A stretch of 64,000 bases of DNA from Escherichia coli (GTDB lineage Bacteria > Pseudomonadota > Gammaproteobacteria > Enterobacterales > Enterobacteriaceae): the NCBI RefSeq assembly GCF_003018255.1, contig NZ_CP027440.1. One strand, given 5' to 3'. The translations under genes and the position numbers were made by a program. The notes under the pieces were generated by a model, which did not search any database, was not told the DNA's origin, and saw only the letters and a list, made by a program, of their open reading frames with translations. Shown here piece after piece: positions 57,900 to 59,681 of this stretch (within the stretch, counting starts at the first letter, position 1; each line of letters opens with the position of its first letter).

Positions 57900-59681
57900 G
57901 TGAGCGATATTGTTTACCTGAGAATAATCGGTGAGAAGCAGGGCTATATTTCTTCAGGCTGTGGGACGTATGCGTCGGTTGGTAATTGCTGGCAGGTTGG
58001 CCATGAAGATGAAATTTTTGCCTTTGCACTCACCAACGCCATTACCAGTACTGGTAAAGGCGTTAATCTACAGGGGCTACAATTTTGCAAACTCATTGAT
58101 AAAAGCTCACCGCTACTGTCTAATGCCATCAATCAGAATGAGCGGTTATTTATTGAAATCGATTTGTATCGTATAAATAAAAGCGGGCGCTGGGAACGGT
58201 ATTATTATATTCAGCTAAGAAATGCTTCATTAACTGCTATTCATGTAAACATTTCTGACAATAATCTTCCTACCGAATGTATAACTGTCGATTATGACTA
58301 CATATTATGTAAACATCTAATAGTCAATACGGAATTTGACTGGTTGGCCTTTCCTGCTGGCTATAATAGCTTATTTATTCCGCCTAAAAGCCCACCTGCC
58401 AGTAATCTTAAGCCTGAACCTCTACCAGTTGTTAACCTTCCACTCTCTTCACCAGCGGTTAACCCGGTCTATGCAAAATCCTGTCTGAAGGAGAAGGGAT
58501 GTACAGATGCTGGAACGGCAGAAGAACCCGCTGAAAACTTCGGTCAAGTAGCGATTTTTGCTCAGCCAGTGGTTGATGACTGCTGTGGATACCACCATCC
58601 CGAGGCTAACGATGTCGGGCAACCCGCAGAAGCTCAAACCATGCTACTGTTTCCGGGTAGTGTGTTGGCGGCTCAAATATGGGGAAAATGGTCGCTCAGT
58701 GGCATACTCAGTGCAACCCGCGGCTCTTACATCGGTGCGTTGGCATCTGCTTTGTATATTCCCTCTGCGGGCGAGGGCAGTGCTCGCGTGCCCGGACGTG
58801 ATGAGTTCTGGTATGAGGAAGAACTGCGGCAGAAAGCACTAGCAGGCAGTACCGCCACCACCCGGGTACGTTTTTTCTGGGGAACTGACATTCACGGCAA
58901 GCCTCAGGTGTATGGTGTTCATACGGGTGAAGGTACGCCGTATGAAAACGTCCGCGTGGCGAACATGCAGTGGAACGAGCAGACGCAGCGTTATGAATTT
59001 ACCCCCGCTCACGATGTCGATGGCCCCCTGATTACCTGGACGCCGGAAAATCCGGAACATGGGAATGTTCCGGGCCATACCGGTAACGACAGGCCGCCGC
59101 TGGATCAGCCCACCATTCTGGTGACGCCGATTCCGGACGGCACCGATACCTATACCACGCCGCCATTCCCGGTTCCTGATCCGAAAGAATTCAACGATTA
59201 TATTCTGGTTTTTCCGGCGGGATCCGGTATTAAGCCCATCTATGTTTACCTGAAGGAGGATCTGCGAAAGCTGCCTGGTGTTGTAACAGGGCGCGGCGTC
59301 CCGCTTTCACCAGGAACTCGCTGGCTGGATATGTCGGTATCCAATAACGGCAACGGCGCACCAATCCCGGCGCATATTGCTGATAAATTGCGCGGACGGG
59401 AGTTTAAAACCTTTGATGAGTTTCGCGAGGCGCTGTGGCTGGAGGTGAGTAAAGACTCAGTGTTATTGGCGCAGTTTATAAAAAGTAATCAGAATAACGT
59501 TAGTCAAGGATATTCCCCCTATGTCCCTGAGGAGGGGTATTATTACGGACCAAATGAGATAGTTAAGAAATTCCAGATACATCATGTAGTTGCTATAGAA
59601 CATGGTGGTGGAGTGTATGATATTGATAATTTTAGGATTGTTACGCCCCGACTACATGATGAAATTCACTACAGGAGATAA
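57900..59681 (+). CDS. Hcp-family (T6SS tube) protein with C-terminal extension ending in a colicin E-type HNH DNase domain (Hcp-ET-like effector)
   Basis: GTG start with aagga SD. Residues 1-160 look Hcp-like (MSDIVYLRIIGEKQGYISSG...HEDEIFAFAL...LIDKSSPLL...RYYYIQLRNASLTAIH). Proline-rich linker at 161-190. The C-terminus aligns, from memory, with the colicin E9 DNase domain (GAPIPAHIADKLRGREFKTFDEFREALWLEVSKD ... KKFQIHHVVAIEHGGGVYDIDNFRIVTPRLHDEIHYRR carries the HNH motif). AT-rich island absent from the K-12 arrangement. Confidence 0.8.
   Translation: MSDIVYLRIIGEKQGYISSGCGTYASVGNCWQVGHEDEIFAFALTNAITSTGKGVNLQGLQFCKLIDKSSPLLSNAINQNERLFIEIDLYRINKSGRWERYYYIQLRNASLTAIHVNISDNNLPTECITVDYDYILCKHLIVNTEFDWLAFPAGYNSLFIPPKSPPASNLKPEPLPVVNLPLSSPAVNPVYAKSCLKEKGCTDAGTAEEPAENFGQVAIFAQPVVDDCCGYHHPEANDVGQPAEAQTMLLFPGSVLAAQIWGKWSLSGILSATRGSYIGALASALYIPSAGEGSARVPGRDEFWYEEELRQKALAGSTATTRVRFFWGTDIHGKPQVYGVHTGEGTPYENVRVANMQWNEQTQRYEFTPAHDVDGPLITWTPENPEHGNVPGHTGNDRPPLDQPTILVTPIPDGTDTYTTPPFPVPDPKEFNDYILVFPAGSGIKPIYVYLKEDLRKLPGVVTGRGVPLSPGTRWLDMSVSNNGNGAPIPAHIADKLRGREFKTFDEFREALWLEVSKDSVLLAQFIKSNQNNVSQGYSPYVPEEGYYYGPNEIVKKFQIHHVVAIEHGGGVYDIDNFRIVTPRLHDEIHYRR

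Follow-up and report, generated by a model that had tools for sequence, protein, structure and literature searches.

The gene usp, which encodes the uropathogenic-specific protein, lies on PAIusp, a small island with the genes imu1-3 / orfU1-3 (PMC7142922, PMC3685522, PMC3917654) that is defined as an insertion between aroP and pdhR (PMC7142922). Published work describes two variants, uspI and uspII, with a separate orfU linked downstream of each, and divides the island into four subtypes; H-N-H dependent non-specific DNase activity was shown for Usp of strain Z42 (PMC3685522). The gene has been counted among the 'evolved Hcp' polymorphic toxins, evidence for secretion still lacking in 2015 (PMC4436062); Ma et al. 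2017, to the extent relayed in PMC6730261, list it as Hcp-ET3-4 (UTI89_C0121) and describe its Hcp domain as a carrier that loads the protein into the type VI secretion tube, with secretion by a type VI secretion system (T6SS). H-NS binds the usp promoter region and represses usp, the divergent aroP P3 promoter and the H-NS sites controlling usp being placed in the aroP-usp intergenic region, and guanine plus cytosine (GC) content is given in the literature found for whole genes only, with 49% for usp and 36-38% for the imu genes (PMC7142922). Here the usp locus of an Escherichia coli strain (assembly GCF_003018255.1, contig NZ_CP027440.1) was analysed within a stretch of 64,000 nucleotides (nt), called the window below, with respect to the base composition along the gene and the exchange of its 3' end together with the immunity gene that follows.

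In its aroP-pdhR locus, its product of 593 amino acids (aa), its domain order and the small immunity genes after it, the gene in the window agrees with Usp/PAIusp and is identified as usp. By Pfam, the product has T6SS_HCP at aa 28-139 (PF05638), Pyocin_S at aa 309-450 (PF06958) and Col-Pyo_DNase at aa 460-591 (PF21431), and its N-terminal domain passes the curated TssD model TIGR03344 with 120.6 bits against a cutoff of 58.9. From about aa 452-453 the protein matches the DNases of colicins E9, E2 and E7 and of pyocins AP41 and S2 (E 3e-33 for the DNase domain against colicin E9, 3e-32 against pyocin AP41), and the H-N-H residues of its C-terminal tip align with those of colicin E9. Three open reading frames (ORFs) of 96-98 aa follow usp, all labelled bacteriocin immunity protein in RefSeq, and the product of the first matches the immunity proteins of pyocin AP41, Im7, Im8 and Im9 with E values of 1e-20 to 1e-13. 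Of 5426 complete E. coli genomes, 1058 (about a fifth), among them CFT073, EC958 and LF82, have the part of usp upstream of the tip, the trunk, with an identity of at least 97%, and every copy was chromosomal. The window trunk is 97.6% identical to that of CFT073 and about 98% to that of EC958, and the aroP-pdhR insertion site is the same in EC958 and further E. coli strains.

The favoured reading, which we consider probable, is that usp is a three-part evolved Hcp toxin whose tip and immunity gene are exchanged as a cassette at two blocks of homology. The first part is an AT-rich Hcp domain (aa 1-160), which would act as carrier into the type VI secretion tube (Ma et al. 2017 as relayed in PMC6730261). 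The second part is a conserved extension of host-like composition (aa 161-516) in which a linker and a domain of the pyocin-S type are followed by the N-terminal portion of a DNase of the colicin type, and the third is an AT-rich tip of 77 residues with the immunity-specificity region and the H-N-H active site. Tip and next immunity gene would form one cassette, bounded 5' by a 15-nt junction (the LWLEVS codons) and 3' by a repeated spacer together with the final ~90 nt of the immunity gene, which are conserved. Homologous recombination at both blocks, a mechanism suggested by the sequence comparison, could then replace, delete or duplicate cassettes and change toxin and immunity specificity jointly, while displaced tips and immunity genes would stay downstream as orphans. 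Under this reading the 3' GC step would mark the boundary between trunk and cassette, and the 5' step the end of the Hcp domain.

Tip exchange by recombination had been proposed in the first-pass annotation from base composition; it is strongly supported, by the comparison of alleles rather than by composition. Pairwise identity and synonymous divergence (dS, by the NG86 method) were determined for six E. coli loci and seven loci of other genera. Compared with the window, the genes of EC958, SCU-124 and SCU-108 are 96-99% identical over the trunk (57900-59435), 56-61% over 59453-59560 and 83% in the H-N-H core; identity is 57-59% in the variable part of the immunity gene and recovers to 93-95% from position 59891. 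Citrobacter freundii is 63-80% identical in the trunk, 86% over 59453-59560, 95% in the H-N-H core and 93% in the variable part of the immunity gene, with 82% from 59891 and 53% in the spacer. Accordingly, dS against EC958 is 1.72 in the tip and 0.02-0.08 in the trunk, whereas against C. freundii it is 0.30 in the tip, 1.2-2.5 in the trunk and 0.85 in aroP. The divergence of tip and immunity gene is thus discordant with that of the trunk.

Cassette types also differ in position among strains. Type A, the main cassette in the window and in CFT073, to which the window tip and immunity gene are 99.8% identical, lies behind a truncated orphan tip in EC958, and type B, an orphan in the window, is the main cassette in SCU-124 and SCU-108. 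Tip A with immunity gene A was found by BLAST at 99% identity or more in 257 records, and all ten full-length matches sampled (at least 99.4%) stood under tssD. It is the main cassette in about a quarter of the usp-positive genomes, most others having a partial orphan copy only. The cassette order B-C in SCU-124 equals the window order A-B-C minus the first unit, which is exactly what a crossover between junction copies would give.

The boundaries of the exchanged unit were located in the island itself. Three exact copies of the junction TGGCTGGAGGTGAGT occur there, at 59436, 60127 and 60817, compared with 0.3 expected by chance; the junction is invariant across the cassette alignment, and the identity of alleles collapses immediately 3' of it. 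From the repeat and cassette alignments each copy opens a unit of about 690 nt, which consists of about 110 variable nt, a better conserved H-N-H core, the variable first two thirds of an immunity gene, the nearly invariant last ~90 nt of that gene and a spacer with a 13-bp hairpin. The first unit comprises the end of usp and immunity gene A, the second an intact orphan tip and immunity gene B, and the third a tip with a deletion and immunity gene C. Further copies of the 3' homology block stand at about 60573-60770 and about 61270-61460, the latter being more diverged (repeat family D1). The junction aligns to colicin E9 at W58-EEVSKD, upstream of the H-N-H histidines, and residues 72-98 of colicin E9, the immunity-binding exosite, lie just downstream of this position. 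Being upstream of both exosite and catalytic histidines, the junction would delimit an exchanged unit of specificity region and active site, not a whole DNase domain. What the first-pass annotation called the DNase tip is an AT-rich, exchangeable end as described there, but with its 77 residues it makes up only the C-terminal portion of a DNase domain about 140 residues long.

Several further observations concern these cassettes. In each of the five further E. coli loci inspected, orphan tip 2 has the same frameshifted reading (…DNLRRAHLICM…) as in the window; this tip appears inactivated at least in the loci inspected, while immunity gene C is intact. Hairpins of 13 bp stand just 3' of each immunity gene, at 60002-60034, 60684-60716 and 61379-61415, with -15.8 to -17.7 kcal/mol and z of -4.3 to -5.3; the third differs in sequence and keeps the pairing. 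They were not called in a terminator scan because no T-run follows them, and the promoter and terminator scan of the island gave a result no better than shuffles. E. coli SCU-172 has a usp copy, labelled S-type pyocin domain protein, that matches only from query base 426 (99.1%), a copy therefore without most of the Hcp domain. The E. coli IncF conjugative plasmid p1517k (locus L015, 3917-4510) carries a trunk-less H-N-H tip with a colicin-type immunity gene, adjoined by iron-transport genes, in which homology starts at the equivalent junction (…ALWMEVGKDPELL…); this suggests that pairs of orphan tip and immunity gene also travel on plasmids.

Base composition along usp was analysed by a GC profile in 100-nt windows, by counts per segment and by an unconstrained three-segment change-point fit of the ORF scored by log-likelihood gain. 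The first-pass annotation had described by eye an AT-rich 5' part, a GC-rich middle and an AT-rich tip, and the profile is not flat: GC is 0.399 over 57900-58400, 0.558 over 58700-59430 and 0.371 over 59450-59681. The best split of the 593-codon ORF has breaks at 58380 and 59450 with GC of 0.39, 0.55 and 0.37, and its gain of 23.2 exceeds both the maximum of base shuffles (9.9) and that of 36 host genes of the window (11.1), which bears out the three-part pattern. The 3' break falls exactly at the LWLEVS junction codons. As the annotation had it, the tip is AT-rich like the three immunity genes after usp (0.33-0.39). The 5' part is AT-rich as a whole, though not evenly so, its first ~150 nt having GC of 0.48-0.49. 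The middle, on the other hand, is not GC-rich for this genome, with a window mean of 0.521 and values of 0.525 for aroP and 0.553 for pdhR, and its GC at third codon positions (GC3) is 0.578 compared with 0.577 expected under host codon usage. The middle is therefore host-typical and both AT-rich ends are the atypical parts, in an island with GC of 0.40 between flanks of 0.52-0.55. A split on GC3 only, with a gain of 15.75, places the breaks at 58578 and 59475 (GC3 0.36, 0.57 and 0.29), the 5' break then lying within the linker rather than at the end of the Hcp domain.

The same segmentation was run on eight Hcp-ET genes from four genera, Escherichia, Salmonella, Citrobacter and Kluyvera. In each of the eight the Hcp part is AT-rich (GC 0.37-0.44) and ends in a 5' break at aa 159-170, GC then rises to 0.54-0.61 in the middle, and the end is AT-rich again (0.35-0.40). 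The 3' step varies among the orthologues between aa 410 and 525: E. coli and the two Salmonella species have it at the LWLEVS codons, the two Citrobacter DNase genes at aa 500 and 483, and Kluyvera and the alternative-toxin gene of C. koseri at aa 410-418; in the latter gene it lies within about 30 residues of the point where the protein ceases to be homologous to that of the window. S. enterica, S. bongori and C. freundii likewise have the island between aroP and pdhR (loci L006, L007 and L008; 4001-5785). Trunk dS to S. enterica is 0.7-1.75 compared with 1.05 for aroP, by which the trunk would have roughly the age of these genera and the pattern is persistent, not a recent scar. Any assembly of the mosaic is ancient, and the mosaic is no mark of recent assembly. 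As to the surroundings of the relatives, the S. enterica locus holds four immunity genes and two orphan DNase fragments, and related Hcp-ET genes stand beside a bifunctional aspartokinase / homoserine dehydrogenase gene in Kluyvera and, in C. koseri, one after the citrate synthase gene and one after the fumarase gene (loci L009, L011 and L013).

This persistence raises the question of whether the composition domains are actively maintained, with the AT-rich ends serving as H-NS binding or silencing tracts, or with the ends, unlike the middle, escaping the GC-favouring selection or gene conversion bias to which host genes are subject. No lineage has lost the contrast, although synonymous sites have undergone roughly one substitution or more each, and H-NS is a known repressor of usp (PMC7142922). 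In every species pair the dS of the middle is lower than that of Hcp and linker, a comparison for which NG86 is unreliable near saturation and with skewed composition. However, the known H-NS binding is in the promoter region and a role in the coding region is putative, and translational selection is unlikely because one transcript should see one expression level. Active maintenance is held to be doubtful as an explanation in place of the cassette reading. A related view, considered less likely than not, is that the mosaic is no decaying scar but a stable maintained state, which has outlasted the synonymous change (about one substitution per site or more) accumulated after Escherichia, Salmonella and Citrobacter split. 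If true, segment-specific forces would act within one reading frame, candidates being H-NS-nucleating AT-rich ends and a cross-genus pool of AT-rich tip/immunity cassettes plugging into a fixed junction inside the DNase. The low dS of the middle and the AT-rich Hcp part could possibly reflect H-NS-related constraint, uneven biased gene conversion or a middle homogenised with paralogous effectors.

Another explanation would make the mosaic a mere by-product of protein composition, uninformative on origin or exchange. Pro, Gly and Ala abound in the linker and the pyocin-S region, whereas Lys, Asn, Ile and Tyr do so in the Hcp domain and the tip; the GC predicted from amino acids and host codon usage is 0.46 for Hcp, 0.57 for the linker, 0.56 for the middle and 0.46 for the tip. 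In 200 synonymous shuffles, where codons were swapped among positions of the same amino acid and the protein was kept fixed, the mean gain was 13.9 with the breaks at unchanged places (480 and about 1501 nt into the gene). The protein sequence alone thus yields more than half (about 60%) of the mosaic statistic, and uneven synonymous choice adds the rest (p about 0.01). Against protein composition as the sole cause, the steps are present in GC3 too, the observed total gain was reached in only 3 of the 200 shuffles and the GC3-only gain in 2, and the 3' step coincides with the independently mapped divergence breakpoint. As a sole cause it is already partly refuted, and this explanation is considered improbable. 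A recent stitching of the E. coli gene, with an AT-rich hcp, a bacteriocin fragment of higher GC and a DNase tip again rich in AT as its pieces, which the sharp GC steps, the AT-rich island between GC-richer flanks and the published interpretation of low GC as horizontal acquisition (PMC7142922) might suggest, was rejected as highly implausible, since the pattern and its 5' break are conserved in S. enterica, S. bongori, C. freundii, C. koseri and Kluyvera, the aroP-pdhR site is shared with Salmonella and C. freundii, and the trunk dS to Salmonella contradicts it for the trunk.

Several points weigh against the cassette reading. It leaves unaccounted that the AT-rich Hcp part has been kept without drift to host composition. 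The detailed comparison behind exchange is pairwise and covers only the six E. coli and seven other loci. Composition alone is weak evidence of separate origins, given the share of the gain that the protein sequence reproduces by itself. Finally, the target of Usp is disputed, being either bacteria (PMC6730261) or mammalian cells (PMC7142922, PMC4436062).

The first-pass annotation had further suggested that the gene was assembled from modules of different origin. As drawn from composition this step is weak, because the protein explains over half of the signal, the middle is host-like and the mosaic is present in all eight orthologues, yet a modular build is supported by the reuse of the extension. 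Relatives of aa 161-516 stand behind Hcp in Escherichia, Salmonella, Citrobacter, Kluyvera, Superficieibacter and Pseudocitrobacter, behind PAAR in Pectobacterium and Lonsdalea and behind a VgrG-type DUF2345 region in Klebsiella and Enterobacter, and some of them precede an rRNase domain or an unassigned toxin in place of the DNase; the module of the second segment is common to PAAR-, VgrG- and bacteriocin-type proteins. In pairwise alignments homology to the VgrG-type and rRNase-carrying proteins begins at aa 158-164, directly after the Hcp domain, and to the PAAR-linked protein at aa 187, and in whole-toxin swaps it ends at aa 453-456, after GIKPIYVYL. These alignment ends indicate that the family uses at least three junctions, namely after the carrier, after the pyocin-S domain and inside the DNase. 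With the Hcp part alone as query only fragments of the same family and no close stand-alone Hcp were found, so this search does not tell where the AT-rich carrier came from. Between the carrier and the pyocin-S domain a Cys-rich motif, PVYAKSCLKEKGCTDAGT…DDCCGY, is conserved at 58458-58595 (aa 187-232); it is 61-66% identical across the Hcp-, PAAR- and VgrG-linked versions, and no Pfam domain covers it.

The features of the locus are collected in Table 1. No T6SS cluster was found within the 64-kb window. A second AT-rich stretch of the window, at 19001-22000 (GC 0.43-0.47 amid 0.52-0.58), contains an ORF at 20112-21140 with GC3 of 0.44 and is unrelated to usp.

Table 1. Coordinates of the usp locus and its neighbours in the window
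Feature	Position	Strand	Description
aroP	56001-57374	-	5' neighbour of the island
PAIusp	57375-61778		Island between aroP and pdhR
aroP-usp intergenic region	57375-57899	+	GC 0.31, very AT-rich; 5' edge of the island
usp (Hcp-ET3-4)	57900-59681	+	ORF; gene of a 593-aa Hcp-fused DNase toxin
Compositional segment 1	57900-58379	+	Hcp carrier domain, aa 1-160; GC 0.39, GC3 0.37
Compositional segment 2	58380-59449	+	aa 161-516; GC 0.55; host-typical codon usage from ~58578
Contents of segment 2			Pro-rich linker with Cys-rich motif; Pyocin_S 58824-59249; N-terminal part of DNase 59277-59449
Junction TGGCTGGAGGTGAGT	59436-59450	+	15 nt, W-L-E-V-S codons; putative 5' recombination boundary of the tip cassette
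Compositional segment 3	59450-59681	+	Putative swappable tip, aa 517-593; GC 0.37, GC3 0.32
Immunity gene, type A	59681-59977	+	Cognate; imu/orfU homologue; GC 0.33; putative exchange cassette with the tip
3' homology block	59891-60080	+	Conserved end of immunity gene and inter-cassette spacer with hairpin
Orphan tip 1, type B	60127-60372	+	Starts at junction; H-N-H motif intact; without trunk
Immunity gene, type B	60375-60668	+	Paired with orphan tip 1
Orphan tip 2, type C	60817-61065	+	1-nt deletion near 61018/61019 inside the H-N-H motif
Immunity gene, type C	61066-61356	+	Partner of orphan tip 2
pdhR	from 61779		3' neighbour of the island

If the exchange unit is, as proposed, the last 77 codons of usp with the immunity gene, with breakpoints near 59436-59450 and 59891-59977, its placement would explain the published uspI/uspII variants and island subtypes, and the 'extra' immunity genes would belong to displaced cassettes and not be simple duplicates. 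The usp gene is in wide use as a marker for extraintestinal pathogenic E. coli, and PCR or typing targets at its 3' end would split strains by cassette, not by lineage. The GC steps should be read with caution, as they are no proof of recent foreign origin. The locus illustrates modular toxin evolution by a known gene; it is no new system, and the current understanding of polymorphic toxins is left unchanged. Novelty is low since the usp locus and its 3' variants, with their own orfU and four subtypes, are published, and the additions relative to the literature found are modest: the exact breakpoints, the interpretation of the small ORFs that lie among the imu genes as orphan tips, the sharing of cassettes across genera and the persistence of the mosaic throughout the family. 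Intragenic GC steps, orphan tips as displaced toxin ends and a junction inside the DNase were not described in that literature; Nakano 2001 and Kanamaru 2006 may cover part of these points.

Compared with known systems, the published uspI and uspII and the four island subtypes (PMC3685522) correspond to the exchange of tip and cassette seen here. The Hcp-ET family, as far as it is presented in PMC6730261, shares with usp the Hcp N-terminus, the extension with pyocin-S and colicin DNase domains and the several immunity genes downstream. In the same source these downstream genes are given, after Ma et al. 2017, as three duplications of an immunity gene, whereas the immunity genes of the usp locus belong to three different types, and for two of these the partner is an orphan tip. 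In the T6SS DNase effectors of the VPA1263 type (NF047924) profile positions 375-711 are matched by the pyocin-S and colicin-DNase half of usp, but with 214 bits the match is far under the cutoff of 900 bits and the N-terminal carrier differs.

Like the nuclease colicins E2, E7, E8 and E9 and the S-type pyocins, usp combines a DNase with immunity of the Im type, specificities diversifying together, and the composition of its tip and immunity genes (0.37-0.40) resembles that of colicin DNase and immunity genes. Unlike the nuclease colicins it has no receptor-binding or translocation domains and no lysis gene, and it is chromosomal instead of residing in a plasmid operon such as that of ColE2. 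In ColE2, GC3 is low throughout with no step at the EEVS position, by which the host-like middle is particular to the chromosomal effector trunk. The Rhs and CdiA toxins resemble usp in a trunk and a short junction motif that are both conserved, in a toxic end that is variable and has cognate immunity, and in downstream orphan pairs that bear the junction; as in other polymorphic toxins the trunk of usp ends in a variable part at a conserved junction, trunk-less pairs of tip and immunity gene standing at 60127 and 60817. The carrier of usp is however Hcp, not Rhs/YD repeats or a two-partner secretion filament, and with the junction placed within the catalytic domain, exchange affects a part of the toxin domain only.

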